Source: an uncultured Gemmatimonadota bacterium
GTDB taxonomy: Bacteria; Blakebacterota; Blakebacteria; Blakebacterales; Blakebacteraceae
DNA: 64,000 nucleotides
Direction: 5' to 3'
Assembly (NCBI GenBank): GCA_964576115.1
Contig: CAZNUA010000002.1
Span: 21,789-85,788 of the forward strand
Shown: positions 6,434 to 52,901 of the stretch, piece after piece
How the letters are laid out: each line of letters begins with the position of its first letter
Position numbering within the stretch: position 1 is the first letter of the stretch
The notes under the pieces: generated by a model
The model's input: only the letters and a program-made list of their open reading frames with translations
Databases searched by the model: none
Told to the model about the DNA's origin: nothing
Translations under genes and position numbers: made by a program

Positions 6434-7000
6434 ATGGACGAGAGCACACTCATAGAGCGGGCCCGGGCCGGAGACGAAGCTGCCTTCGGCGAACTGGTCG
6501 GCCGGCATCAGGATCGTGTCTACCGTACCGCGGTCCGGCTGGTCGGGTCCGAAGATGCGTACGATGTCTCCCAGGAAGTCTTCGTCAAAGCCTGGCGCGA
6601 GCTGAAGCGGTTCCGGGGTTCGGCGGCGCTGTCCACCTGGCTGTACCGGATGACGGTCAATCTCTCGCTCAACTACCTGCGGAGCACGAAGCGGGAAACC
6701 GATCGCCGGGAGCGGTACGGTCCCGGCGTCTCGGAGAAACCCCCCGCCCCCGGGGCCGCCCTGGAAGAGGACGAGTTCAAGACAGCGGTCTGGGCCGCCA
6801 TCGATTCCCTGCCCGAACGTCAACGCACAGCCGTCATCCTGCACCGGTTCGAGGAACTCCCGGCGGCCGAGATCGCCCGGATCATGGACCTGAGCACCGG
6901 AGCGGTGGAATCGCTGCTTCACCGGGCCCGCTCGAGCCTGCTCGAGGCCTTCCGGTCCCGGGGGCTGGGACCGCCGGATAGAGCTGGCGGGGAAGGGTGA
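6434..7000 (+). CDS. ECF (sigma-70 family, RpoE-like) RNA polymerase sigma factor
   Basis: Sigma-70 region 2 (VSQEVFVKAWREL...TWLYRMTVNLSLNYLR) and region 4 (ERQRTAVILHRFEELPAAEIARIMDLSTGAVESLLHRAR). Confidence 0.9.
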   Translation: MDESTLIERARAGDEAAFGELVGRHQDRVYRTAVRLVGSEDAYDVSQEVFVKAWRELKRFRGSAALSTWLYRMTVNLSLNYLRSTKRETDRRERYGPGVSEKPPAPGAALEEDEFKTAVWAAIDSLPERQRTAVILHRFEELPAAEIARIMDLSTGAVESLLHRARSSLLEAFRSRGLGPPDRAGGEG

Positions 7001-7073
7001 AAAAAACCGCCGGAAGACGTATGGGAAAGACCGCCTGCGGGGTCAGAGAGATGAGTCAAGAGGGGTTAGCCAG

Positions 7074-7439
7074 ATGACACACGACGGAACATACGAGGAC
7101 CGCCGGGCCGAGGCGGTGTGGGAAGCGATGCCCGACCGAGCGCCGGCCGGCGCGCCGGTCGACCTCTGGCCGGGTGTGCGGGCGCGAATCGCACGGGAGA
7201 AGATCGTGCCGCTGCCCGCGCGCGAATCGCACTGGCGTATTGCGGTCTCCTTCGCGGCCGGCCTGCTGGCAGGTCTGGCGCTCTGGTTCCTGGCCACCAG
7301 CGGGGCAGTAGATCCGGTCCTGTCGACCGAGGAGATTCTGGCCCAGGAGGCTGTTTTCGAATCGCTCGATCCGATTCCTCCCGCGTCGATCGGAGGCATC
7401 TATTTCGCCACCCTGACCTTCGAGGAGGAGGGCCGATGA
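7074..7439 (+). CDS. small single-pass membrane protein, putative anti-sigma factor
   Basis: Immediately downstream of the ECF sigma gene; one TM helix (IAVSFAAGLLAGLALWFLATS); stop overlaps the next start (ATGA). Confidence 0.5.
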   Translation: MTHDGTYEDRRAEAVWEAMPDRAPAGAPVDLWPGVRARIAREKIVPLPARESHWRIAVSFAAGLLAGLALWFLATSGAVDPVLSTEEILAQEAVFESLDPIPPASIGGIYFATLTFEEEGR

Positions 7440-10151: not shown

Positions 10152-10733
10152 ATGGCTCTGACCGACGCGAATAAGCCCGACCCCGAGCTGCGGCTCGAAA
10201 TCTCCGACGAGGAGATCATCCGCAGCTGTCTCGAGGGTGATTCTGACAGCTACCGCATCCTGGTGGAGCGGTACTGGTCCATGGTCTACAGTGTGGTCCG
10301 GCGCATCGCCGACTCCCATGACGATACCGTGGACGTCACCCAGGAAGCGTTTGTGAGGGCGTACGAGCATCTGGCCGATTTCGCCCGCGACTGCAAGTTC
10401 TCGACCTGGCTGCTGCGGGTCGCCACCAACTACGCCCTCGACCAGAAACGCCGGCGCACGGCCCGGGTGCGCCTGCGCGAATACGTGCCCGTGACCGGGT
10501 ACACCCCCTCGCCCGACACCCCCGCCATCACCCGCGAGACGGAGAGCCGCCTCTCGGAAGCCCTGCGCAGCCTGAGTCATCACCAGCGTCTGGCGCTGGT
10601 CCTGAAGGTCGTGCACGGCATGAGCACGAGCGAAGTGGCCGACATTCTGGGGTGCTCGGAGGGAACGGTCCGGGTGCACCTGCACCAGGCCCGCAAGGCA
10701 CTGCGGGACCGCTGGGAAGGATGGCGGTCGTGA
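10152..10733 (+). CDS. ECF RNA polymerase sigma factor
   Basis: Region 2 (VTQEAFVRAYEHLADF...STWLLRVATNYALD) and region 4 (LALVLKVVHGMSTSEVADILGCSEGTVRVHLHQARKAL). Start taken at the internal Met MALTDANK; the track ORF begins at 10047. Confidence 0.85.
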   Translation: MALTDANKPDPELRLEISDEEIIRSCLEGDSDSYRILVERYWSMVYSVVRRIADSHDDTVDVTQEAFVRAYEHLADFARDCKFSTWLLRVATNYALDQKRRRTARVRLREYVPVTGYTPSPDTPAITRETESRLSEALRSLSHHQRLALVLKVVHGMSTSEVADILGCSEGTVRVHLHQARKALRDRWEGWRS

Positions 10734-11290
10734 ACGCGCGCGGCTACCGCAGGCCGGGCCGCTCCGGGGCCACCTTCCTGTGCGGCTACGTTCAGCGCAC
10801 CCTCGGTCAGCTGGGTGATGACGCCCTGGCCCTGCCCCTGATCAGCCGTCATCTGGCCGACTGCCCCGCCTGCCGGGCTCACCGCCGTCGGATCGCGCTG
10901 GTGGACCGGGCTCTGCAGCGCGAATTGCTCTGGGAGACGCCGCCGGTCTTCGCCGGCCGGTGGGAAGAAATCCGCACCCGGCTCGGGTTCGATCCCGAAC
11001 CCGACCGAGTTCCCCGGCAGCGTTCCGGAATCAGGGCGGGTCTGCTGACCGTCGCCCTGTCGGCCCTTTTGCTCCTTCTCGGAGTCGCCTGGCGCGTCGA
11101 CCATGCCCCCCCCGAACCGGTCTCCGTCATCGCCGTGGCACCCGGGGTGGCGATCACCGCCGCTTCGACCGAGGGTGAAGAGGCCACCGTCAACGTCGAA
11201 TCGACAGATGCCGAGGACGGAACCGTCTACCTCTGGCTCGACGACACCGGCAGCGGCGACGACGCCGGCTTCGAAGAGGAGCAGTGGTGA
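10721..11290 (+). CDS. anti-sigma factor, zf-HC2 type (HxxxCxxC) with one TM helix
   Basis: HLADCPACRAHRR zinc-finger motif and TM helix LLTVALSALLLLLGVAW; ATG 10721 overlaps the sigma gene stop. Confidence 0.75.
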   Translation: MAVVNARGYRRPGRSGATFLCGYVQRTLGQLGDDALALPLISRHLADCPACRAHRRRIALVDRALQRELLWETPPVFAGRWEEIRTRLGFDPEPDRVPRQRSGIRAGLLTVALSALLLLLGVAWRVDHAPPEPVSVIAVAPGVAITAASTEGEEATVNVESTDAEDGTVYLWLDDTGSGDDAGFEEEQW

Positions 11291-24099: not shown

Positions 24100-25926
24100 A
24101 TGGAACGAATTGTCGAGTGCGTGCCCAACTTCTCGGAAGGCCGCAACGAAGCCGTCATCACCGAGATCACCGATGCCATCGAGAGTGTGGCCGGTATCCG
24201 CCTGCTCGATGTCGACCCCGGTGCCAACACCAACCGCACGGTGGTGACTTTTGTCGGCGAGCCCTCAGCCGTCGCCGAAGCCGCTTTCGCGGCCGTCAAA
24301 CGCGCCTCGGAGATCATCGACATGAGCACCCACAGCGGCGAGCACCCGCGTATGGGCGCCACCGACGTGGTGCCCTTCGTACCGGTGGCGGGGGTGACGA
24401 TGGCCGACTGCGTCGAGATGGCCCGCGCCGTTGGCCGGCGGATCGGAGACGAGCTCGGTATCCCGGTCTATCTCTACGAGCACGCCGCCTCCACACCGGA
24501 ACGGCGCAACCTGGCCCGGGTGCGAACCGGCGAATACGAAGGTCTCAAGGACCGTTTCGGCGATCCGGAGTGGACCCCCGATTTCGGTCCGGCCGAGTTC
24601 AACTCCCGCTCGGGCGCCACCGCGGTCGGCGCCCGCGAGTTCCTGATCGCCTACAACATCAACCTGAACACCATCGACCGCCGCTACGCCAACGAACTGG
24701 CTTACGAAATCCGCGAGCGGGGACGCTGGAAGCGGGCCGGGAATACCGAACCCTTCTACTACAAGGGCGAGGTGGTGCGCTTTGCCGGCGACGGTTCTTA
24801 TCCCTGCGGTAACTGCGATTTCATCGGCGCCTCGTTCGCAGAACTCGCCGATCACTACCGCGATGTGCACGGCGGCGATCTCGCTCGTCGTTTCGCCGAC
24901 CTCGACATCGATCCCGGGAATCCCTCCGGGCCGGTCTTCAAGGACGGCCGGTTCAGTCATGTCAAGGGAATCGGCTGGGTCATCGACGACTACGGCTGCG
25001 CCCAGATCAGCATGAACCTGACCGACTACCACGTCAGCCCGCCGCACGAAGTGCTCGAGGCCACCCGCGCCGAAGCCCTGAAACGGGGTATCGGCATCAC
25101 CGGTTCGGAGATCGTCGGGGTCATCCCGTATGAAGCCATGCGCCAGGCCGGCAGATACTACCGCCGCAAGATGATGAAATCGACCGGCATCCCCATCCCC
25201 GACCTGATGGAAACGGCGGTACGTTCGATGGGCCTGCGGGACGTGGCCCCTTTCGATATCCCCGAGAAAGTCCTCGCCCTGCCGCAGATCGAAGGTCCCC
25301 TGGTCAAGCGGCCGACCTTCGACTTCGTCGACGAGGTCTCCCGCGACACGCCCGCGCCGGGGGGAGGCTCGGTAGCCGCCCTGGCCGGCGCTCTCGGGGC
25401 CGCCCTGGCTTCGATGGTGGCCAACCTCTCGGTCGGCAAGGGGGAGTTCGACGAACGCTACGACGAACTCTGCTCGATCGCCGAACGGGCCCAGGAACTC
25501 AAGGACGCCCTGGTGCGCGCTGTGGACGAGGATACCACCGCCTTCGATTCGGTCCTCGAAGCGATGCGCATGCCCAAGGACACCGAAGCCGAGCGGGCCG
25601 AGCGGGCCACGGCCATACAGGCGGGTTACGAAGCAGCCACCCGGGTGCCCCTGCGCACGGTCGAACTCTGCCGCGAGGCGCTCGGACTGCTCAAGACGAT
25701 GGCCGGGATGGCCGATCCGAACATGATCAGCGATGTGGGGTCGGGGGCCCTGCTGGCCCGCGCCGGAGCCCGTGCGGCGGCCTACAACGTGCGCATCAAC
25801 CTGCCGCACATCAAAGACGAGGCCCTGTGCTCGGAACTCTCAGGCGGTCTCGACGAGGAGCTCGCCGCCTGCGCCAGGCTGGAAAAAGCTGTCACGAAGA
25901 ACGTCGAGAAAGCCCTGGCTGACTGA
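24100..25926 (+). CDS. bifunctional formimidoyltransferase-cyclodeaminase (glutamate formimidoyltransferase + formimidoyl-THF cyclodeaminase)
   Basis: N-terminal formiminotransferase signature (ECVPNFSEGRN) and C-terminal cyclodeaminase signature (PAPGGGSVAALAGALGAALASMV); AAGGAG RBS 7 nt upstream of ATG 24100. Confidence 0.8.
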   Translation: MERIVECVPNFSEGRNEAVITEITDAIESVAGIRLLDVDPGANTNRTVVTFVGEPSAVAEAAFAAVKRASEIIDMSTHSGEHPRMGATDVVPFVPVAGVTMADCVEMARAVGRRIGDELGIPVYLYEHAASTPERRNLARVRTGEYEGLKDRFGDPEWTPDFGPAEFNSRSGATAVGAREFLIAYNINLNTIDRRYANELAYEIRERGRWKRAGNTEPFYYKGEVVRFAGDGSYPCGNCDFIGASFAELADHYRDVHGGDLARRFADLDIDPGNPSGPVFKDGRFSHVKGIGWVIDDYGCAQISMNLTDYHVSPPHEVLEATRAEALKRGIGITGSEIVGVIPYEAMRQAGRYYRRKMMKSTGIPIPDLMETAVRSMGLRDVAPFDIPEKVLALPQIEGPLVKRPTFDFVDEVSRDTPAPGGGSVAALAGALGAALASMVANLSVGKGEFDERYDELCSIAERAQELKDALVRAVDEDTTAFDSVLEAMRMPKDTEAERAERATAIQAGYEAATRVPLRTVELCREALGLLKTMAGMADPNMISDVGSGALLARAGARAAAYNVRINLPHIKDEALCSELSGGLDEELAACARLEKAVTKNVEKALAD

Positions 25927-25997: not shown

Positions 25998-27011
25998 CTA
26001 TAATTTGGTCGAGCAGCTCGGACAGTAGTGCCAGCCCAGGCTGACCGTCTGCCCGCAGGTGGGGCAGGTGCCCCGCAGTTCGGTCTGACAGTAGGGACAG
26101 ACCACGAACCGCTTCGAGATCCGCTCCCCGCACTCGGGACACACCGGCCCCGACTCGCGGGTGACCAGGGCGTAGATCAGCAGCCCGATCAGACTGGTGA
26201 AGAGGGTAAAGAGGGCCCAGAGCACGGCCGGCAGGCGCCGCTTCTTCGCATCGAGATAGACCCAGACCGGCGGGGTGAGAATCAACAGGATGATCCCCAG
26301 CTGGCCCAGGCGCTGCAGGATCACGGCCAGGACCTGATAGAACGAACCGGGCAGTTCGGTTTCAGGCCGAAAGACAACAACCCGCAGGCCTCCGGACAGA
26401 CCTATCGGGACTTCATTTCCGGCAATATCCTGGGCTGTCAGGTAATCACCGGGGAAGTACTGACGCAGGACATCTGCATACTGATACCGATTTCGTCCCT
26501 GCCTGGAATAGAGGTGCAGGTCCCTGATCATAAATCCGTGCGTATTCCAGATCCGGTTCCGGTCGGGATCGGCGATCTCGGCCGGGGAGAAACCCTCGTC
26601 GGCGGAGACCCATTCCTGCAGATTGCGACCTTCAGCGGTTCTCAGCTCACCTTTCACGATGAGCGGCACGTCCTGATAAGCTGAGCCGATCTCCCGGTGA
26701 AACGCCTCTACCGTTCGCTGCACCAGAGCGGCAAAGGTCGAGTCGACCGCGAATCTCGGTCCCGCGGCCGTCAGTTCCGGGATCGTGAAGGTGAGCTGAC
26801 CAATATCGCCGAGCTGACGCTCGAAGATCTCTTTGACTTGCCGGGTGATGGCTTCACGCTCGCCGTATTCCTCGTTGTGCTGCCGGTTGATGTATTCCCC
26901 GTGTTTGTCTTTCATCCAGCCCGAACTCAGCATCGCCAGCAGTGGCATCACCACTCCCACCAGCACGATACCGATGACCCAGTTCCATTTTGTCTCCGAT
27001 AGTCCCTTCAT
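25998..27011 (-). CDS. membrane protein with extracytoplasmic domain and C-terminal double zinc-ribbon (4x CxxC)
   Basis: N-terminal TM, about 200-aa soluble domain, two more TM helices, then CPECG...CPYCQ...CPTCG...CPSC; start ATG overlaps the anti-sigma stop (ATGA). Confidence 0.6.
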   Translation of the reverse strand: MKGLSETKWNWVIGIVLVGVVMPLLAMLSSGWMKDKHGEYINRQHNEEYGEREAITRQVKEIFERQLGDIGQLTFTIPELTAAGPRFAVDSTFAALVQRTVEAFHREIGSAYQDVPLIVKGELRTAEGRNLQEWVSADEGFSPAEIADPDRNRIWNTHGFMIRDLHLYSRQGRNRYQYADVLRQYFPGDYLTAQDIAGNEVPIGLSGGLRVVVFRPETELPGSFYQVLAVILQRLGQLGIILLILTPPVWVYLDAKKRRLPAVLWALFTLFTSLIGLLIYALVTRESGPVCPECGERISKRFVVCPYCQTELRGTCPTCGQTVSLGWHYCPSCSTKL

Positions 27012-27493
27012 GACACATCCTCCATTCGACGCCGTGCGGTGGCAAAGAGCAGGGGTGAGGAGAGAAGCAGGAGTCCGGTCGTACCGGCCAGGACGTGCAG
27101 CGGGTAGGTTGTCAGACCCTGCACGATCCAGAGAACGGCCTCGGATACCGGCGGGAAGAGGCCGCCGAAGAGAGCCACGACGAGAGCCGCGACGCCCGCC
27201 ACCCGCACGACCAGGCGCCGGACCGTGTGCTGCGGATCGGCCCGGTGCCCGGCTGCGGCCATCACCCCCGCCATCCGCCGCTCGAACCCGAGTCGGCCGC
27301 CGGCTTCGCGCCCGGGCACGGCCCCCTCGATGGCACGCAGGAAGTCCGCCCACTCCCGGCAGTCGGCGCATGTGTCGAGATGCCGCGCGATCGTATCGTG
27401 CCGGCGGCCCGATTCTCCCCGCAGGTGATCGATCAGCAGGGGCCGGATTTCGGTGCACCCCGGGCGGTTCAGGGTGCCGTTCTCATTCCTCAT
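27008..27493 (-). CDS. anti-sigma factor, zf-HC2 type
   Basis: HLDTCADCREWADF zinc motif plus TM helix; alternative start at 27514 would overlap the sigma gene. Confidence 0.7.
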   Translation of the reverse strand: MRNENGTLNRPGCTEIRPLLIDHLRGESGRRHDTIARHLDTCADCREWADFLRAIEGAVPGREAGGRLGFERRMAGVMAAAGHRADPQHTVRRLVVRVAGVAALVVALFGGLFPPVSEAVLWIVQGLTTYPLHVLAGTTGLLLLSSPLLFATARRRMEDVS

Positions 27494-27500
27494 CGTGTTC

Positions 27501-28118
27501 TCACTCCCCTTCATGTCGCTTCAACTCCTCACCGAATTCAATCCCATCCCTGTCTTCGGAGAGCAGAGCCGACCGCATTTTTTCCAGCGCTTTGAAGCGC
27601 CGGACCCGGACGGTGGCCCGCGAGCACTCCTGCAGCTCCGCGATCTGAGCCGTGTTCCAGCCGCTGAAGAAGGTCAGCCGGACGGTTTCCTGTTCCAGGG
27701 TCGAAAGGGTGCTCAGGGCCGCCTCGAGCATCGCCGGCGAGAGGCTCTCGAGTCCCGCATCGGGCTCGGCCGGAGCCTGGCCCATGGTGGTCTCGACCAG
27801 CCCCTGCTCCCGTCCCTCCCATAATCGCCGGCGGGTCTTCAGGACTTTGAGCCGGTCGAAACACAGGTTGCGGGCGATGGTGTAGATCCAGGTGGAGAAG
27901 CGGGCCGAGGCCCGGTAGGAATCCGCCGAACGGATCGCTTTCATGAAGGTCTCCTGCACCAGATCTTCCGCCTCGTCTTCCGAAGGAACAAAACCACGGC
28001 AGTAGCGGAGCAGCCGTACCGCATAGCGGTCCATCAGCTCCCCGAAGGCGTCGGTGTCGCCCCGGGAGTAGCGGATGAAGAGTCGTTCATCGCTTATGCG
28101 GTTCGGTTCACGTCCCAT
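27501..28118 (-). CDS. ECF RNA polymerase sigma factor
   Basis: Region 2 (LVQETFMKAIRSADSY...STWIYTIARNLCFD) and region 4 (ETVRLTFFSGWNTAQIAELQECSRATVRVRRFKALEKM). Confidence 0.85.
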   Translation of the reverse strand: MGREPNRISDERLFIRYSRGDTDAFGELMDRYAVRLLRYCRGFVPSEDEAEDLVQETFMKAIRSADSYRASARFSTWIYTIARNLCFDRLKVLKTRRRLWEGREQGLVETTMGQAPAEPDAGLESLSPAMLEAALSTLSTLEQETVRLTFFSGWNTAQIAELQECSRATVRVRRFKALEKMRSALLSEDRDGIEFGEELKRHEGE

Positions 28119-28166
28119 GCAGTTCCGTATACCGGTCCGGCTCACCGGACGTTTATCGGGATCGGT

Positions 28167-45810: not shown

Positions 45811-48800
45811 TCATTTCAACAGCAGGATTTTCCGCGTCATCCGGCGACGGTCCAGTTCCAGCACCACCAGGTACACCCCGGCGGCGACCCGCCGGCCGTC
45901 ATTGTCGGTGCCGTCCCAGCGGACCTGGTAGTCGCCGCCGGCGGTAGCCCGGTCGATGAGCAGCCGCACGCATCGGCCGCGCACATCCCTGATCTCGAGC
46001 CGGAGTCGATCGGATCCGCCTGCCGGCACCCGGTAGCGCAGACAGGTCTCGGGATTGAAGGGGTTCGGCACGGCCGGCAGCAGAGCCGCCTCCGGCGCTG
46101 TCTGAGGCACCGTCAGCGCAGCCGGGCCGAGCCAGAGAACCGGCCGGCCGGGCCGCACGATACGGACCGCCACAGCCTCGGGTGCCGCCTGCCCCTGCGG
46201 ACCGGGCTCGAGTTCGAGTTCCCAGGCGCACCCCGGCGGGGCAGGAGGCGAAAAACTCTCCCCGATACCGGTCGGCAACCAGAGCCGGTCGTCACCGGGG
46301 GGGCCACCGCCTCCCCGCGGAGCCCCGTAGCCGGCGTAGAGAGCACTCTCGATCCCCTCGCCGCCGGCCAGGACCTGCCAGCGCACCTCGACGAGCAGGG
46401 GTCCGCGCCGGGTGGTTTCGAGACCGCTCACGGCCAGTCCGGGGCCCGCCGCTTCGGCCCGGAGCAGTCGCGTGCGATCGGCGTGGATGTCCAGGGGGGT
46501 GCAGCGCCAGCCTCCGTCGGGAGCCAGTTCGCGCAGATCCACAGCCATTTGACCGCTCCCGCTTCCCGACAGCAGCACAGCCAGGTCGGCGTACCAGGTG
46601 AGGCCCGCTGTCCGGGCCCTGACCGTCGTGCCCCCGGCAGTCAGCAACAGGGGTCGATCGGGATGCGGCGCCGCGCCCCGGCACCAGCGGGGCATGGCGG
46701 GCAGGGCCGGTGCCGCTACCGTCACGGCCCGCGTCCAGCGGCGTTCTCCATCGGCTGTCTGCCGGGTGAGTTCGACCCGCCACCGGCCCGCCTCCAGGCC
46801 GCTGATCCGGTGTGAGTGCCACGACCGGTCGCCGCCGAGAGCCGCACTCCAGCGGGGCTGCCCTCCCGCGGAGATGAGCCGCACCTGCCCGGGACCGGAA
46901 CCCGCCCAGAGCAGCTCGAGGGTACCCGGCCCGGCAGCCCAGACCTCGAGCGCGGGCCGATCGACCGGCTCGCTCGATCCCCCGCCGTCACCTCCCACCC
47001 GGCCGAGAGCGATTCCAGCCGTCCCGGCCGGCTGCCAGGTGAGCAACGAGTCGATGTCGATCGCCACGGCGTCTCCCCAGCCGATGGTGAAGTCCTCTCC
47101 GATCAGCTCGCCTTCCGAGGTGCGGAAGCACCCCCGCCAGGCCTGGCGGTACCCATCCCAGGAGCTGACGCTTAGCACAGCCGGGTCGTCCAGAACCGCG
47201 GCTGCCGTGCGCACCCGGGTGGAATCGCACACCCCGACCAGGGCCAGACCGCCGCCCCTCGCGAGTGACGGAGGGTCATAACGCCGGGGACCGTGCCAGG
47301 TCAGGGTGCAGGGAGCCGTACTCACGACAGCGTACCCGGCGCCGGGTACGAGGGTGAAATCGTCGCCGGCCGTACTTCCGTCGGTCAGGCGCAGAGCCGA
47401 GCACCAGGCCGCCGAGAGCTGATCCCACCGGGCTACTTCCCCCGCCGCCGGCAGAGCCGACAGCAGAGAAAAGGCCCCGGTGCAGGCCGGATCGTCGAGA
47501 GTGGGAGTGATCAGGGTCACCCCGGGGGAGAGAACGCAGGCCCGGTCGGCCCGGTGAGCGATACGGATCGCAGCGGGTGAGGTCACCGTCGCCGGGGGGT
47601 TCAGACCGTCCTCGACACGGGCCGCGAGCCGCCAGAGCGTTCCTTCGGGCAGGTCGAAGAGTTCGACCGCCACCGTACCCCGGTCAGTGCGATCGAGAAC
47701 CTGCGGCACGGTCAGGGCGGGCGCCGTCCGGCTTCCCCCTTCCTCTTGCAGGGTCAGGGTGGCCCAGGCCTGGCCCGGATCGGCGAGACTGTATTCGAGC
47801 AGAAGCACCGAATCGACCGCGGCTCCGACGGGGAAGTCGAGCCAGGTGAAAATCGGCGGCGGATCGGTGGCCAGGGCCGGCAGGATGACCTCCTGCGGCG
47901 AGTCCCCGCTCACCGTGACGAGCCCCGAGGCGACCCCCGCAGCGGCCCCGTCGGCCTCGATTGTCAGGGTATCGCCGGCCGCCCAGGAGCAGGCCGATCC
48001 CCCGATGGTCCGCAGGTTGCCCAGGTTCAGGGCCCAGCAGCCGGTCGAGTCGCTGCGCGTGGCGAGCCAGCCCGAACGGGGTGTGGCGCCCCCCAGTCTC
48101 AGGAATACCTGGGCTCCCCCCACCGCCTCGCCGCTTACCGATCCGACGAGGCATCCGTACACGGTGCGGGGCACAGAGGTGACGACCGTCCCTGTTGTCA
48201 ACGAGGTGAACGTATCAGCCGGAGCGGGAGTACCCGCGCTCACGACCCGCCAGGTCACGGTAGTGCCGGGGTTGAGACCGTAGTGTTCGACCAGGTGGAG
48301 CAGTCCGGCGGGGTTGCCGTCCCAGGTGCGGCGCAGGTGTGATCCGGAGAGGATTTCGAGCCGTCCGTCAGCGGCCGTGCTGCTCCGCCAGGCGACACCG
48401 AATCCGGCGCTGGTCAGATTGACGATCCTGGTCCGGTACAGCATCGGCGCGCTTGTGTCGGGACCCCCGTCCGGAGTCGCGGGCCCGGCCGGACTGAAGG
48501 CCGCCGCGAACCGGGTGGCATGATCGCAGAAATCGCCCGCCCCTTCCGGATCGCGGACCCAGGCGGCATCGGTGTCCCAGCCGGCATAGGTGATATCCTG
48601 CAGGGTGTCGGGACCGGCGGGATCGATCAGAAGCAATCGTCCGGCGGTATTGCTCAACCCCGATCCCAGCCGGCCGTCATCCACGAAGCATCGGCCCGGT
48701 AGAGTGGTCGGCTCCCCACCGCCGAAAAGGGTGACATACTCGCCCGGAGCCAGCCTGGTTCCGGGCGGGAAGGTGAAGGGATCGGCTCCGGCCGGGCCGA

Positions 48801-49047
48801 GTATCCAGCCTGACACGTCCACCGGCCCGGCGCTCCGGTTGACCAGTTCGATGAACTCGTCGGCATACGTATCCCGGACGCCGTCGCCGTTGGCGTCGCC
48901 GGCCAGATCGGCGGGGGGATCGGCGAGCACCTCGTTGATGACGACCGGAGGATCTGTCTCCTGAGCCCACAGAGACAGGGGCAGGGTCGCGACAGTCAGC
49001 AGTACTGTCGCCGCTCCCGCCCGCAGAAGCAGGTTCGCAGGTTGCAT
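45811..49047 (-). CDS. large secreted protein with lamin-tail domain (LTD) and C-terminal type IX secretion (Por) sorting domain
   Basis: Signal peptide; LTD signature (VVINEVLADP...DEFIELVNRS...VDVSGWIL); C-terminal about 80 aa with a T9SS CTD pattern (LEIRDVRGRCVRLL...GVYLVVLELDRRRMTRKILLLK). Confidence 0.75.
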   Translation of the reverse strand: MQPANLLLRAGAATVLLTVATLPLSLWAQETDPPVVINEVLADPPADLAGDANGDGVRDTYADEFIELVNRSAGPVDVSGWILGPAGADPFTFPPGTRLAPGEYVTLFGGGEPTTLPGRCFVDDGRLGSGLSNTAGRLLLIDPAGPDTLQDITYAGWDTDAAWVRDPEGAGDFCDHATRFAAAFSPAGPATPDGGPDTSAPMLYRTRIVNLTSAGFGVAWRSSTAADGRLEILSGSHLRRTWDGNPAGLLHLVEHYGLNPGTTVTWRVVSAGTPAPADTFTSLTTGTVVTSVPRTVYGCLVGSVSGEAVGGAQVFLRLGGATPRSGWLATRSDSTGCWALNLGNLRTIGGSACSWAAGDTLTIEADGAAAGVASGLVTVSGDSPQEVILPALATDPPPIFTWLDFPVGAAVDSVLLLEYSLADPGQAWATLTLQEEGGSRTAPALTVPQVLDRTDRGTVAVELFDLPEGTLWRLAARVEDGLNPPATVTSPAAIRIAHRADRACVLSPGVTLITPTLDDPACTGAFSLLSALPAAGEVARWDQLSAAWCSALRLTDGSTAGDDFTLVPGAGYAVVSTAPCTLTWHGPRRYDPPSLARGGGLALVGVCDSTRVRTAAAVLDDPAVLSVSSWDGYRQAWRGCFRTSEGELIGEDFTIGWGDAVAIDIDSLLTWQPAGTAGIALGRVGGDGGGSSEPVDRPALEVWAAGPGTLELLWAGSGPGQVRLISAGGQPRWSAALGGDRSWHSHRISGLEAGRWRVELTRQTADGERRWTRAVTVAAPALPAMPRWCRGAAPHPDRPLLLTAGGTTVRARTAGLTWYADLAVLLSGSGSGQMAVDLRELAPDGGWRCTPLDIHADRTRLLRAEAAGPGLAVSGLETTRRGPLLVEVRWQVLAGGEGIESALYAGYGAPRGGGGPPGDDRLWLPTGIGESFSPPAPPGCAWELELEPGPQGQAAPEAVAVRIVRPGRPVLWLGPAALTVPQTAPEAALLPAVPNPFNPETCLRYRVPAGGSDRLRLEIRDVRGRCVRLLIDRATAGGDYQVRWDGTDNDGRRVAAGVYLVVLELDRRRMTRKILLLK

Positions 49048-49192
49048 ACGGATCTCCCGAAAGCCTGATGCCGGGGGGTCGGCAGGTTTATTGGGGGAGC
49101 CTGTGGGGGGGGAAATGGTGCGGTGGGGGTAACCGAACGGGAGTATACTTCCCGGGGGGAAAGAGCACAAGGACCGGTCGCCCGGAAGCTCC

Positions 49193-49222
49193 TTGACCTG
49201 CTTTTATCGTCCCGCGTAATTG
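49193..49222 (+). promoter_or_regulatory. putative promoter of the ECF sigma gene (TTGACC, 18-nt spacer, TAATTG; overlapping ECF-like GGAAGC...CGTC)
   Basis: Motifs 50-80 nt upstream of ATG 49274. Confidence 0.3.
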
Positions 49223-49273
49223 ATTCGCGCTCACCGCCCGGGCTCCGCCCCCGGCCGCGGGACGCAGGAGAAC

Positions 49274-49840
49274 ATGACCAGGTCCGACACGAACCAGCTC
49301 ATCGACCGCGCCCAGAGAGGCGACGAGGAGGCTTTCACCTCCCTGGTGCGTCTCTACGAGGCTCAGGTGCAGGCTGTCTGCCTGAAGATGGTCCATAACA
49401 CCGAGACGGCGCGCGACCTGGCTCAGGAAACGTTCGTGAAAGCCTTCAGCGCCCTGGCATCCTTCGATCGTTCCTTCACTTTCTCCACCTGGCTGTACAA
49501 GATCGCCCGCAATACCTGCATCGATCACTTCCGCCGGCAGAAACTCGAAACCTACTCCCTCGATGCGCCGATGCGGACCCGCGAGGGACAGATCGAGCGC
49601 GATTTCCCCTCGCCTATCAATACCCCGGAGCGCTTCCTCATCCTGAAGGAACGGGGCCGCCTGATCGAGGAGGCGATCGAGAGTCTACCCGACAAGTACC
49701 GGGAGGTCATCGGGCTCCGGCACAAGCAGGAACTGCCGTACGAGGAGATTGCCAACATCCTCGGTGTACCGCTCGGAACCGTGAAAGCCCGTCTCTTCAG
49801 GGCCCGCGAACTCCTCAAGAAACGGCTCAAGTCCCTGTGA
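49274..49840 (+). CDS. ECF RNA polymerase sigma factor
   Basis: Region 2 (LAQETFVKAFSALASF...STWLYKIARNTCID) and region 4 (YREVIGLRHKQELPYEEIANILGVPLGTVKARLFRAREL); GGAGA RBS. The track ORF begins at a TTG at 49220. Confidence 0.85.
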   Translation: MTRSDTNQLIDRAQRGDEEAFTSLVRLYEAQVQAVCLKMVHNTETARDLAQETFVKAFSALASFDRSFTFSTWLYKIARNTCIDHFRRQKLETYSLDAPMRTREGQIERDFPSPINTPERFLILKERGRLIEEAIESLPDKYREVIGLRHKQELPYEEIANILGVPLGTVKARLFRARELLKKRLKSL

Positions 49841-49937
49841 TCGCTCGATCCCGGTGCCTTACCCGGCCGGGGGCCGCTTCTGAAACCACCCTCCGGGCCG
49901 CTGCGTATCTAATAGGTGGCCCGAAAGGAGTCTGACC

Positions 49938-51278
49938 ATGGCCGTACGCAAAGCTGACATCCGCGCCCACGGCCGGCCCGGCCCGGTTCTGCTGGCGGCG
50001 TTCTGCCTGCTCGCCGCCCTGCCGGCAACGGCTGTGGCAGATTCCTGCCTCACCCCCGTGGATCAGGAATTCGAGCAAGAGTACGAGCAGGAAGAAATCC
50101 AGCAGTTCTACCGGGAAATCGAACGCCTGTCCGGCGACCTCCAGGAGGCGGTCGACACCATCGAGAGCGGCCGGCGCGAACTCGACGCCGTCAAGGAAGC
50201 CCTGCGCCGCCTCGAGGAAGATCTCTCGGAACTCGACGAATCGCCCGACACCCTGCGTCTCAAGGCGCAGCTGACCGAACTGCGCGGCCGGTATATGTCC
50301 GCCAACCTGCGGCGGGCGATGGGGGGCATGCCCGACGCGCGCGAGCTGCTCGACGACGAGCTCTGGCGGCGCTTTGCGCCCGACATCGAAGTCATGCGCG
50401 GCACCACCTCGCGCCATAACATCTTCCGGATCGGGGAAGACGTCGAGATCGGGCTCTATGAGCGGGTGCGTGGCGACGTGGTCGTCATCGGTGGCGAGAT
50501 CACCGTGCGCGGCTCGGTCACCGGGTCGGTGGTGGCGATCTTCGACGACATCCACATCACCGGCACCGGGCGGGTGGACGGCGACGCCGTCACGATCGGC
50601 GGGATGATCCGGCAGGATCCGGGGGGTACAGTTCGCGGCGATTTCGTCGACACCCGGTTCAGCTGGCCGCAGAGCTGGCACTGGATCCAGGCTCCGGCCC
50701 TGCCGTTTTTCTTCGGACTGGGGGGATTCGTCTTCATTCTGCTGGTGAGCCTGATGGTGGGCCTGATCGCGCCGCGCGGGGTCGATCGGGTCGAGTATAC
50801 CGTTCGCAACCGCTTCGGGGCTTCCTTCCTGGTGGGCCTGCTGACCGAGCTGCTGCTGCCGATCGTCTTCATCCTGCTGCTCATCACCATCATCGGGATC
50901 CCGGTGGCAATCATCGTGGTACCCCTGGCAATGGCCTGGCTGCTGATCCTCGGTTTTACGGGAGTAGCGCGGGCGGTCGGCCGCGGCGCCGATCAGCGGG
51001 GTTTGAAGATCGGGGATTCTCCGGTCGGCCTGATCGCGGTCGGGGTTGTTCTACTCGAGATTATCTACCTTATCGGCGGCGGACTCGGAATCGCCCCCGG
51101 CGTGCTGGTCCCCTTCGCCTTTGCCACCCGGCTGGTAGGGGGACTGATCCTTTTCCTGGCCTGGACGACCGGCCTGGGGGCGGCTCTGATGACCCGCTTC
51201 GGCACCCGCATCCCCGGCGAGACCCCGGCCGTACCCAAACCGGCGCCTCCCCCCGCAGGAGCCGAAACTCCGGCCTGA
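49938..51278 (+). CDS. secreted/membrane protein: signal peptide, acidic coiled coil, bactofilin-like beta-helical repeats, C-terminal multi-TM region (candidate noncanonical ECF partner)
   Basis: Signal peptide; repeats (GDVVVIGGEITVRGSVTGSVVAIFDDIHITGTGRVDGDAVTIGG); 4-5 C-terminal TM helices. Confidence 0.6.
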   Translation: MAVRKADIRAHGRPGPVLLAAFCLLAALPATAVADSCLTPVDQEFEQEYEQEEIQQFYREIERLSGDLQEAVDTIESGRRELDAVKEALRRLEEDLSELDESPDTLRLKAQLTELRGRYMSANLRRAMGGMPDARELLDDELWRRFAPDIEVMRGTTSRHNIFRIGEDVEIGLYERVRGDVVVIGGEITVRGSVTGSVVAIFDDIHITGTGRVDGDAVTIGGMIRQDPGGTVRGDFVDTRFSWPQSWHWIQAPALPFFFGLGGFVFILLVSLMVGLIAPRGVDRVEYTVRNRFGASFLVGLLTELLLPIVFILLLITIIGIPVAIIVVPLAMAWLLILGFTGVARAVGRGADQRGLKIGDSPVGLIAVGVVLLEIIYLIGGGLGIAPGVLVPFAFATRLVGGLILFLAWTTGLGAALMTRFGTRIPGETPAVPKPAPPPAGAETPA

Positions 51279-51314
51279 GTCCGGTCTGAACGGCAGCCGA
51301 GAGAACGTTCACGG

Positions 51315-51347
51315 AAAAGCCCGTCCGGTCACCCGGGCGGGCTTTTT
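51315..51347. terminator. rho-independent terminator-like hairpin flanked by A- and T-runs (AAAAGCCCGTCCGG-tcac-CCGGGCGGGCTTTTT), bidirectional between convergent genes
   Basis: GC-rich stem followed by TTTTT, preceded by AAAA. Confidence 0.6.
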
Positions 51348-51369
51348 CCCCGGATACTGCTCGGACAGG

Positions 51370-51930
51370 TCAGCGACCGATGGCGAGCCGCACGCCCAGC
51401 CAGCAGGTCGGAGCGCCGGTGGCATCCGGAGGGGGAACCGGGGTGATCTCGAAGCGCGGTTCTTCACGGTCGAAATCGGCCAGGTGGGCGTCCACGAAGG
51501 CGTCGGCCAGATTGTAGAGCCAGAGACCGACCGTCCAGAGGATCCAGCGCCGGCGACGGGTGCGCCAGTGCTCGATATCGGTTTCCAGCGTCGCCCGTTC
51601 GAGCGCGGTCAAACCCGGATCGCGCCGGCCGGCCAGGTCGCGCACCTGACTGTCACAGTAGAAGGTGAGCCCCAGCAGGCTCGCCGCCCCGGTCGCGAAG
51701 ACCACCCCTTTGACCGGCTTGCCGACGTAAAACTGCCCCCAACCGGGCAGCAGGGCCGAGCGCAGCAGGGCCCGTCCGGGATCGATCGAGCGGACCGAAT
51801 CGGTCAGGGCCGCGGTCGGGGCCGGTTCCTGCTCGAGCCCGGGGTCGGTCCCCGCCTGCGCGCTGGCGCCCTTCGGCGCCCACAGGAGAAGAACCAGCAG
51901 CAGAGAGCCGATCGGGACCGGGCGCGACAC
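51370..51930 (-). CDS. DUF5683-family membrane-associated protein
   Basis: Signature SALLPGWGQFYVGK (SxxxPGxGQxY of DUF5683); probable GTG start 12 nt after the upstream stop. The track ORF is longer and overlaps the neighbouring gene. Confidence 0.6.
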   Translation of the reverse strand: MSRPVPIGSLLLVLLLWAPKGASAQAGTDPGLEQEPAPTAALTDSVRSIDPGRALLRSALLPGWGQFYVGKPVKGVVFATGAASLLGLTFYCDSQVRDLAGRRDPGLTALERATLETDIEHWRTRRRRWILWTVGLWLYNLADAFVDAHLADFDREEPRFEITPVPPPDATGAPTCWLGVRLAIGR

Positions 51931-51941
51931 GCCGGCCCCTT

Positions 51942-52901
51942 TCAGGGCGCCCGGAAGCGCAGGGCCCGCGGCGCGCAGGTGAACTCGATCTCGGTGACGC
52001 CGGTTTCGGTGATCTGGCCGTCGGCGTGGAGCAGGATCGGTTCTTCCCCCTCGACCGTCAGGCTGGGTTTTCGGAGCATGGTGACGTGATGCAGGTGCGT
52101 ATGCTTGCCTGTAGTCGCCCGGGGGAGCAGACGCAACACGGTCGGGACGGGGATGTCGTGTACCAGACAGCAGTCGAAGAGGCCGTCGTCCCATTCGGCG
52201 TCGGGCAGCAGCGTGAAGCCGCCCCCCTCGCGGGTGCCGATACCGATCGTGAGCAGATATACCAGGTCGTCATACCTGTATTCGGGAGCGGTCAGGACCA
52301 TCGGGATCGAGCGGTACTTGTAGAGCGATTCGAGCACCGTCACCAGGTACATGACATACCCGCGCAGGCGGGTATGGCGCAGGCTGTAGGCCGTCACGGC
52401 GGCACTGAAACCCAGGCCGATCGTATTGAAGAAGGGTCGGCCGTTGAAGAATCCGACATCGGTGCAATACACGTTCCGGGAGGTGAGCGCCGCAATGGCG
52501 CCGTCGAGGTCCTCGGGGATACCCCGGCAACCGGTGAAATCGTTACCTGAACCCATCGGGATGGCGCCGAGAACGGCCTCGGAGTCCCACATGCCCCGGG
52601 CCACCTCGTGCACCGTACCGTCGCCCCCCACCGCCACGACCGTGTCCGCCCCCTGCTCGACGGCCTCGCGCGCCAGCTCGGTGGCATGACCCTCCGCTTT
52701 GGTGACGACCGGCGTGAACTCCAGGCCGGCTTCGACCAGGGCGCCCAGGATCTCCCGCTCCCGCCTGGCCACCAGCCCACGGCCGGCAATCGGGTTCATG
52801 ATCACCACGGTGGTCCCCAGAGGTACTGTCTCGGCGGATGCGCGCCGGGTGGCGCGGTCGGCCGCGGGTCCGGTTCGCTCTTTCACACCGGCTCCTCTCA
52901 T
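51942..52901 (-). CDS. YegS/BmrU-family lipid kinase (diacylglycerol kinase catalytic domain)
   Basis: Motifs VVIMNPIAGRG, VVAVGGDGTVHEV, IPMGSGNDF; start taken at Met 52901 so the gene does not run through the tRNA-like element. Confidence 0.75.
   Translation of the reverse strand: MRGAGVKERTGPAADRATRRASAETVPLGTTVVIMNPIAGRGLVARREREILGALVEAGLEFTPVVTKAEGHATELAREAVEQGADTVVAVGGDGTVHEVARGMWDSEAVLGAIPMGSGNDFTGCRGIPEDLDGAIAALTSRNVYCTDVGFFNGRPFFNTIGLGFSAAVTAYSLRHTRLRGYVMYLVTVLESLYKYRSIPMVLTAPEYRYDDLVYLLTIGIGTREGGGFTLLPDAEWDDGLFDCCLVHDIPVPTVLRLLPRATTGKHTHLHHVTMLRKPSLTVEGEEPILLHADGQITETGVTEIEFTCAPRALRFRAP

Follow-up and report, generated by a model that had tools for sequence, protein, structure and literature searches.

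The window analyzed here is a stretch of 64,000 nucleotides (nt) from an uncultured Gemmatimonadota bacterium (contig CAZNUA010000002.1, positions 21,789 to 85,788). Within it lies a two-gene unit, consisting of a gene whose product is a sigma factor of the extracytoplasmic function (ECF) type and, after a spacer of 97 nt, a gene for a 446-amino-acid (aa) membrane protein, hereafter called the partner. A first-pass annotation had proposed that this protein stands where a classical anti-sigma factor would be expected. The coordinates it gave for the two genes hold, and Pfam and NCBIfam support the sigma factor. AGGAG lies 5 nt before the ATG of the sigma gene, and GAAAGGAG lies 7 nt ahead of the ATG of the partner open reading frame (ORF; 49938-51278, plus strand). 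The partner cannot have a longer N terminus, because a stop codon bounds its ORF upstream. The flanking genes are divergent (a minus-strand gene with LTD and FlgD_ig domains) and convergent (a DUF5683 gene), and thus the sigma and partner genes stand alone. The GC content is unremarkable. The features of the locus, in order, are as follows.

49193..49222, plus strand: predicted sigma-70-like promoter of the sigma gene, TTGACC (49193-49198), 18-nt spacer, TAATTG (49217-49222); read from the sequence
49274..49840, plus strand: ECF sigma factor gene, sigmaW/RpoE-like, 188 aa; Pfam and NCBIfam matches
49881..49909, plus strand: predicted ECF (sigmaW-type) promoter, TGAAAC (49881-49886), 17-nt spacer, CGTATC (49904-49909); spacer alignment
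49923..49930, plus strand: ribosome-binding site of the partner, GAAAGGAG; read from the sequence and conserved in the spacer alignment
49938..50039, plus strand: predicted signal peptide of the partner, residues 1-34, MAVRKADIRAHGRPG, with a hydrophobic core and AVA|DSC; hydropathy and charge counts
50058..50321, plus strand: acidic helical hairpin (coiled coil) of the partner, residues 41-128, predicted periplasmic; AlphaFold2
50406..50651, plus strand: bactofilin-fold beta-helix of the partner, residues 157-238, predicted periplasmic; AlphaFold2
50697..51200, plus strand: five transmembrane (TM) helices of the partner, residues 254-421; AlphaFold2, hydropathy and positive-inside counts
51201..51278, plus strand: C-terminal cytoplasmic tail of the partner (..GTRIPGE..PKPAPPPAGAETPA) and stop codon, residues 422-446; tail motif alignment
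51315..51347, plus strand: intrinsic terminator hairpin, flanked by the partner gene and the convergent DUF5683 gene; RNA fold, free energy (dG) -30.3 kcal/mol, z -3.63

The sigma factor matches Pfam Sigma70_r2 (2e-20) and r4_2 (5.5e-16), with no r3 match, and scores 121.4 bits against NCBIfam TIGR02937 (sigma70-ECF; cutoff, 42.9). With sigma-2 and sigma-4 regions, no sigma-3 region, and a score above the family cutoff, it belongs to the ECF (group 4) sigma factors. Its best NCBIfam equivalog is SigW, followed by RpoE. The cutoffs of the SigW equivalogs PRK09641 and TIGR02948 were not reached (173.1 versus 209 bits and 154.5 versus 243.1 bits, respectively); judged by these scores, the protein is SigW-like, not SigW.

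Predicted fold and topology of the partner

The first 34 residues of the partner contain four K/R residues, then a hydrophobic core, and then the Sec-like ending AVA|DSC. Signal-like N termini ending in AxA were found throughout the partner family. This pattern of hydropathy and charge, together with the family-wide AxA endings, bears out the prediction of a signal peptide made in the first-pass annotation. The AlphaFold2 model of the partner (35 homologs; pLDDT, 83.6), in which the N-terminal hydrophobic helix is also modeled, likewise accommodates the acidic coiled coil, the bactofilin-type beta-helix, and the four to five C-terminal TM helices that had been read from the sequence. The coiled coil is a hairpin of helices 41-98 and 103-128, with pLDDT values mostly of 85 to 91 (67 at the N-terminal end and 76 at the C-terminal end). 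It is confined to the window's clade; other clades have a different, strand-rich region at this position. Residues 157-238 (pLDDT, 93 to 97) form, in the predicted model, a right-handed triangular beta-helix of the bactofilin type. The TM helices number five (254-277, 293-316, 320-353, 362-383, and 391-421), and the short helix 279-291 within this region is predicted to be cytoplasmic.

At the sequence level, the window partner gave no match to the Pfam Bactofilin family (PF04519) even at an E value of ≤10. Among its homologs, P0039 and P0055 are sub-threshold, and the distant members P0084 and P0087 pass (28.3 and 28.0 versus 27.9 bits). A Foldseek search of the full-length multidomain model against the PDB was uninformative. 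Precomputed matches to PF26514 (DUF8173), marked as weak, are recorded on P0001 (99% identical) and on most close homologs; the assignment of the partner to DUF8173 rests on these weak matches of homologs, whose position along the protein is not recorded. In the literature, no paper mentions DUF8173. The family is large: a profile of it retrieved 12,132 cluster representatives at E ≤ 1e-10, a number that rises to 18,658 at E ≤ 0.001. The window partner matches a partner profile with an E value of 6e-163.

The hairpin and the beta-helix are predicted to be periplasmic, because the N terminus is Sec-like and the K/R-rich loops and the tail are then cytoplasmic. The predicted cytoplasmic segments are loops 278-293 and 342-360 (K/R-rich; ∼16 and 19 aa) and a tail of 25 to 29 aa. 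Conserved columns in the TM region define two motifs shared by the whole family, ITIIGIPVA and WTTGLGAA. The source name of P0100 had suggested that IIGIPVA is YccF-like, an idea that was dropped for want of Pfam support. The tail carries the motif RFGTRxPGE..PKPAPPPxGAE, which shows strong conservation within the window's clade and which other clades lack. Residues G211, P329, T410, T419, and R424 are also clade specific; we rejected them as a signature of new function, as they are inseparable from phylogeny.

Pairing and promoter placement among relatives

Relatives of the locus were collected with one genome per species, which gave 80 loci, and were annotated with custom profiles. The loci carry the labels of metagenome-assembled genomes of Gemmatimonadota, Zixibacteria, Ignavibacteria, Krumholzibacteriota, Eisenbacteria, Acidobacteriota, and Opitutaceae. 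Of the 66 loci whose upstream side is fully visible, ∼64 have a co-oriented sigma gene directly upstream of the partner gene (or of the operon genes that precede it); the pairing is thus conserved across genomes. Close relatives (∼50% identity) share the entire neighborhood and, because everything around the pair is syntenic, prove nothing about the pairing on their own. The pairing persists, though, across several phyla in which the flanking genes are all different. No sigma gene lies near remote short family members such as P0084.

Several operon architectures were found. The sigma-partner order accounts for 34 loci. Class A, the Krumholzibacteriota type (18 loci), has the order sigma, DUF4097, zf-HC2 anti-sigma, partner, usually followed by Omp85; class B (9 loci) has sigma, DUF4097, partner; and in the remaining loci sigma is followed by a small anti-sigma-like membrane protein and then by the partner. 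A small membrane anti-sigma factor, mostly of the zf-HC2 type, thus separates sigma and partner in Krumholzibacteriota, Eisenbacteria, Acidobacteriota, and Opitutaceae relatives, and it is often translationally coupled to the partner. In class A it has 215 aa, two TM helices, and a zf-HC2 N terminus, and its final 17 nt overlap the partner start. The window sigma is 45 to 49% identical to the sigma factors of related operons and is the best match of the class A sigma factors. Two-gene loci of the Zixibacteria/Ignavibacteria type are in fact sigma-partner-Toastrack operons, and therefore only the window's clade has the bare pair.

Further observations were made on these accessory genes. The class A anti-sigma factor is tightly conserved in L006 (4370-5017), L009 (3875-4522), and ∼25 other loci; most copies keep the C-terminal sequence ..KGETHVGIF, with H211 present in 90% or more of the aligned sequences. 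In the Zixibacteria/Ignavibacteria-type loci, a gene with Toast_rack_N and LiaF-like_C domains lies 7 to 27 nt 3' of the partner; the encoded Toastrack protein of ∼296 aa has a signal peptide (L028, 8995-9885, and 11 other loci of this type). In L091 (3498-4004), L093 (3483-4004), and L086 (3538-4011), the partner is preceded by a small membrane protein of 155 to 173 aa with no Pfam match on record and, by eye, no zinc motif; 4 nt of its gene overlap the start of the partner in L091 and L093. These proteins are possibly a second, zinc-free type of anti-sigma factor for the module.

Two promoter-like elements had been noted upstream of the sigma gene. The sigma-70-like element TTGACC-N18-TAATTG is present, and an alignment of six window-clade loci (CTTGAC-N18-T(A/T)ATTG) shows an invariant CTTGAC core and T-ATT element, although a generic promoter consensus scan did not call it. 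The second, GGAAGC-N18-CGTC, was rejected as an ECF promoter, being unconserved even in the closest relative. Missed by the first-pass annotation was a conserved, putative ECF-type promoter within the sigma-partner spacer (49881-49907), whose CGTA (49904-49907) lies ∼30 nt ahead of the partner ATG. When eight spacers are aligned, no blocks other than GAAAC and CGTA are invariant. TGAAAC with a CGTA -10 element is the B. subtilis sigmaW promoter type (PMC5758882). The 64-kb window contains two matches to the motif; the second (GAAAC-N15-CGTA at 24535, minus strand) has a shorter spacer, lies by eye within a coding sequence, and was taken as a chance occurrence.

The position of this motif differs between clades. 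A motif scan placed GAAAC-N16/17-CGTA 3' of the sigma stop codon in 9 of 10 window-clade loci and in no locus of the other clades, and all 12 window-clade spacers read directly contain it. Upstream of the sigma gene, the motif occurs in 17/18 class A, 15/19 Zixibacteria/Ignavibacteria-type, 6/8 class B, and 3/4 class D loci, compared with 0/10 in the window's clade. In these other clades it lies ∼40 to 60 nt from the sigma gene, the arrangement expected of an autoregulated ECF promoter. The clades with the motif upstream of sigma all keep a zf-HC2 anti-sigma gene, a Toastrack gene, or both; the window's clade has neither.

No terminator separates sigma and partner, so read-through from the sigma promoter is likely as well. 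Indeed, the spacer folds no better than shuffled sequences (z, 0.48), which gives no indication of a terminator or attenuator hairpin, and an Rfam scan of 48900-51500 returned zero matches. The terminator hairpin proposed at 51315-51347 was substantiated by the fold energy listed above; with an A-tract before it and a T-tract after it, it may work in both directions. L001 (4594-5001) carries an insertion of ∼300 nt that separates the GAAAC-N17-CGTA promoter from the start of the partner gene. Hairpin-forming repeats in this insertion resemble a hairpin of the L012 spacer, and given this recurrence a small mobile or repetitive element may be present.

The direction of change was read from a neighbor-joining tree of the sigma factors, rooted with the other ECF sigma factors of the window and computed without support values. 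Anti-sigma-bearing loci are basal in this tree, and all loci without an anti-sigma gene, including the window's clade, fall in one derived clade, which suggests that the operon lost its anti-sigma gene once, long ago. Between lineages that have the anti-sigma factor and those that lack it, the loops and tail of the partner do not differ in length.

Anti-sigma search and gene neighborhood

The first-pass annotation held that the partner lacks an anti-sigma domain and a zf-HC2 motif, and all searches agree. No anti-sigma or zf-HC2 match was obtained for the partner in Pfam (up to an E value of 10), NCBIfam, or a PDB profile search. The partner contains no H-x3-C-x2-C motif and only two cysteines in all (C23 and C37). 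Only 15 residues precede the hydrophobic signal segment; the partner thus does not have the cytoplasmic N-terminal anti-sigma domain before the first TM helix that characterizes anti-sigma factors of class I. The operon contains no anti-sigma, Toastrack, or Omp85 gene, and searches with tblastn and profile hidden Markov models found no homologs of the class A anti-sigma, Toastrack, or Omp85 proteins in the 64-kb window.

A regular-expression search found only two H-x3-C-x2-C membrane proteins in the window, each beside its own sigma gene. The other three ECF sigma factors of the window each have an adjacent downstream membrane protein of the anti-sigma type, and the focal sigma factor is the exception. 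At 6434-7439 (plus strand), an ECF sigma gene (6434-7000) is followed by a 121-aa single-TM protein without a zinc motif (7074-7439) and, in another frame, by an ORF that by eye resembles a CpxP/Spy-type periplasmic protein. At 10152-11290 (plus strand), a sigma gene (∼10152-10733) is followed by a protein with HLADCPAC (10652-11290). At 27008-28145 (minus strand), a sigma gene (27501-28145) is followed by a protein with HLDTCADC (27008-27514).

Outside the window, the class A anti-sigma profile gave 34 matches among 5.8 billion proteins, none of them named as belonging to the window's clade; because the search was word seeded, this constitutes weak negative evidence. All named matches are from Krumholzibacteriota or Eisenbacteria, and the same database contains ∼29 window-clade partners. 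Two hiding places for an anti-sigma domain were considered and rejected. The N termini of partners in other two-gene loci are all signal-peptide-like, and the class B DUF4097 proteins start with a signal peptide and contain no zinc motif. With sigma-partner gaps of only ∼20 to 180 nt, the two-gene loci have no room for another gene. In the literature, no paper was found that links ECF sigma factors, anti-sigma factors, and DUF4097.

The genes flanking the pair showed features of their own. The divergent 1119-aa ORF (45811-49170, minus strand) encodes a Lamin Tail Domain (LTD) and a C-terminal FlgD_ig domain, with a sub-threshold match to CHU_C (a type IX secretion signal); given this match, the protein may be a cargo of the type IX secretion system. 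Its start is probably the ATG at ∼49047 (MQPANLL.., signal peptide) rather than the TTG at 49170. The divergent LTD gene-sigma arrangement is kept in the window's clade, and FlgD_ig or Por_Secre_tail proteins also occur near class A loci. The region between the LTD and sigma genes contains a near-palindrome, GGGAGTATACTTCCC (49139-49153), kept as GGGAGTATACTCCC in the closest relative, L011; it might be an operator, or else the -10 region for the divergent LTD gene. On the other side, the DUF5683 ORF (51370-52194, minus strand) has 274 aa as listed and overlaps the next gene. Its syntenic homologs are called at 151 to 194 aa, so the listed start is probably too far upstream.

Interpretation and comparison with known systems

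We consider, with moderate confidence, that the partner is a conserved direct target of the sigma factor and serves a reduced envelope-stress module as a periplasmic component; on its own it is probably no anti-sigma factor. The locus would be the most reduced version of an envelope-stress module that is conserved in FCB-type phyla and whose invariant core appears to be a sigmaW/RpoE-like ECF sigma factor and an inner-membrane protein of the DUF8173 family. GAAAC-N17-CGTA would be the promoter that the focal sigma factor recognizes. In the window's clade, the sigma factor would be made from the housekeeping-type TTGACC-N18-TAATTG promoter without autoregulation and would directly transcribe the partner gene from the spacer promoter, with read-through adding to this. 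The partner would then be exported with its N terminus out, placing the hairpin and the beta-helix in the periplasm, such that the cytoplasm sees only short loops and the tail, and it may serve as the scaffold or sensor subunit of the module on the periplasmic side. Ancestrally, it would have worked with a sensor-less two-TM anti-sigma factor and a Toastrack protein. After the loss of both, it would have become mainly an output of the sigma factor, and the latter would now be controlled through its own transcription or by an unlinked factor.

The sigma-type promoter in the window's clade would drive the partner and not sigma, which would mark the partner as a target. Only the clade without zf-HC2 and Toastrack genes lacks the motif upstream of sigma, and the partner gained no cytoplasmic domain upon loss of the anti-sigma factor; both argue that the partner does not suffice as an anti-sigma factor. 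Several points weigh on the other side. The promoter assignment is based on conservation and on similarity to promoters of the sigmaW type, the partner's periplasmic location and the cleavage of its signal peptide are predictions, and the sigma tree, as stated, carries no support values. In Zixibacteria/Ignavibacteria-type relatives, the motif is retained upstream of sigma although no anti-sigma factor can be recognized. Their operons must restrain sigma somehow, and the brake could be the partner. Finally, the window is 64 kb of a genome, and an anti-sigma factor may be encoded elsewhere.

The first-pass annotation had offered two explanations, a new class of regulatory partner or a true anti-sigma factor at another site. 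Its premise stands, as neither the partner nor the operon provides an anti-sigma factor. What did not stand is the picture of the partner as a replacement class: because relatives encode an anti-sigma factor between sigma and partner, the latter was ancestrally a co-component of a classical sigma/anti-sigma module. A version of the first explanation is that the partner is a noncanonical anti-sigma factor or negative regulator that holds sigma at the membrane and releases it upon envelope damage, in a negative feedback loop. Contact is proposed to be made by helix 279-291, the extensions of TM3 and TM5, and the conserved tail, while the hairpin and the beta-helix sense. The partner at position +1 is the only universally conserved neighbor of sigma, a promoter dependent on sigma is the wiring expected of a feedback inhibitor, and the Zixibacteria/Ignavibacteria-type and class B circuits, with the motif upstream of sigma and no recognizable anti-sigma factor, need a brake. 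The anti-sigma-less clade has its own specific residues near the cytoplasm, T419 and R424, and its own tail motif, although such residues may merely reflect phylogeny. ECF classification counts a TM protein at +1 as a putative anti-sigma factor, and nonstandard placements of anti-sigma factors have been reported (PMC7826278). Against this, the cytoplasmic segments remained at ∼16, 19, and 25 to 29 aa with no domain gained when zf-HC2 was lost, Pfam, NCBIfam, and PDB profile searches detected no anti-sigma similarity, and a sufficient partner would have allowed the window's clade to retain the motif upstream of sigma, which that clade lacks along with zf-HC2 and Toastrack genes. We regard this explanation as unlikely. 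The broader proposal that, in the anti-sigma-less clade, DUF8173 proteins form a new class of ECF regulator without an anti-sigma domain, working alone or, where one is present, with a secreted Toastrack protein, sensing the envelope through a periplasmic bactofilin-fold module carried by the five TM helices, and acting on sigma through very short cytoplasmic segments, seems to us equally doubtful.

That a classical anti-sigma factor is encoded elsewhere in the genome, with the partner as its periplasmic co-sensor as in sister lineages and only the gene order changed, is also rather improbable. The partner was ancestrally coupled to a small membrane anti-sigma factor, the visible genome is 64 kb, and small anti-sigma factors diverge fast and can escape searches. 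However, the class A homologs sought by tblastn and profiles are missing from the window, both of its H-x3-C-x2-C membrane proteins adjoin their own sigma genes, and none of the 34 profile matches is named as window-clade, this last being a weak negative from a word-seeded search. The absence of the gene from the operon is moreover old and stable across one large clade, and sigma/anti-sigma pairs are normally cotranscribed (PMC7826278). Mere coincidence of unrelated neighbors in one lineage can be set aside almost entirely. The synteny of the closest relatives and the remote short members without a nearby sigma gene (P0084) would fit it, but comparative data already contradict it: the pairing outlasts the change of all flanking genes across several phyla, and the two genes are joined by a conserved promoter of the sigma type.

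Among alternative sigma factors, no family is larger than that of the ECF sigma factors, in which it is the regulators that vary. The locus defines a widespread pairing of an ECF sigma factor with a DUF8173 membrane protein, and its relatives form a natural series from the full module (anti-sigma, Toastrack, and Omp85) through operons without the anti-sigma factor to the bare pair, in which the promoter has moved to the partner. The series would show which components are dispensable and how the circuit is rewired upon loss of the anti-sigma factor. The locus also includes a bactofilin-fold domain predicted to lie outside the cytoplasm, which is unusual for this fold. The value of the locus lies in precise, testable predictions for the large DUF8173 family.

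Among known systems, the sigmaW-RsiW pair of B. subtilis combines an ECF sigma factor with a zf-HC2 membrane anti-sigma factor, and sigma is released by regulated proteolysis. The focal system resembles it in that SigW is the best NCBIfam match, the predicted promoter (TGAAAC-N16/17-CGTA) is of the sigmaW type, and sister-lineage operons have a zf-HC2 membrane anti-sigma factor at or near +1. It differs in the score of sigma (173 versus 209 bits), in having no RsiW-like gene in the operon or window, in a sigma factor that is apparently not autoregulated, and in a +1 gene for an unrelated DUF8173 protein. The E. coli rpoE-rseA-rseB-rseC and B. subtilis sigM-yhdL-yhdK operons each encode an anti-sigma factor and accessory envelope proteins together. 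Sister-lineage operons are similar, with sigma, membrane anti-sigma, and accessory proteins cotranscribed and the accessory gene translationally coupled. In contrast, no sequence or fold relation to RseB, RseC, or YhdK was found, and the window retains only the accessory-type protein, with the anti-sigma factor absent.

Classical bactofilins are cytoplasmic polymers. The beta-helix of the partner has, in the model, the fold of bactofilins (BacA, CcmA, and the Thermus bactofilin; PF04519). Unlike them, it is preceded by a signal peptide and joined to a set of five TM helices, for which reason the domain is predicted to be periplasmic, and its ends are capped by other domains in the model. Lia/Vra modules (LiaF, LiaG, VraT, and YvlB) likewise have beta-helical, membrane-anchored proteins encoded with an envelope-stress regulator, and relatives of the locus carry DUF4097 before the partner or Toast_rack_N plus LiaF-like_C after it. 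A survey of phage shock protein (PSP) systems reported Toastrack contexts with an operonically linked sigma factor, and the Toastrack domains of Lia/Vra-type systems are predicted to be intracellular (PMC11237479). Lia/Vra modules signal via two-component systems, whereas the regulator here is an ECF sigma factor; the beta-helix proteins here have signal peptides, and the operon in the window has no Toastrack gene.

Streptomyces sigE-cseABC and HrpL are examples of ECF sigma factors that have no anti-sigma factor and are controlled via their own synthesis. The window locus resembles them in having no anti-sigma gene in the operon and no sigma-type promoter upstream of sigma, but it has no adjacent gene for a two-component system or transcription factor, and its lineage ancestrally had an anti-sigma factor. 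A putative anti-sigma factor was assigned to 114 of 157 ECF groups, 16 groups have no known regulator, and missing autoregulation has been linked to external transcriptional control (PMC7826278). Because groups without a known regulator exist, the absence of an anti-sigma factor is not new in kind. Novel features here are the DUF8173 partner with its conservation, the bactofilin-fold domain predicted to lie in the periplasm, and the evolutionary series in which the promoter is relocated.

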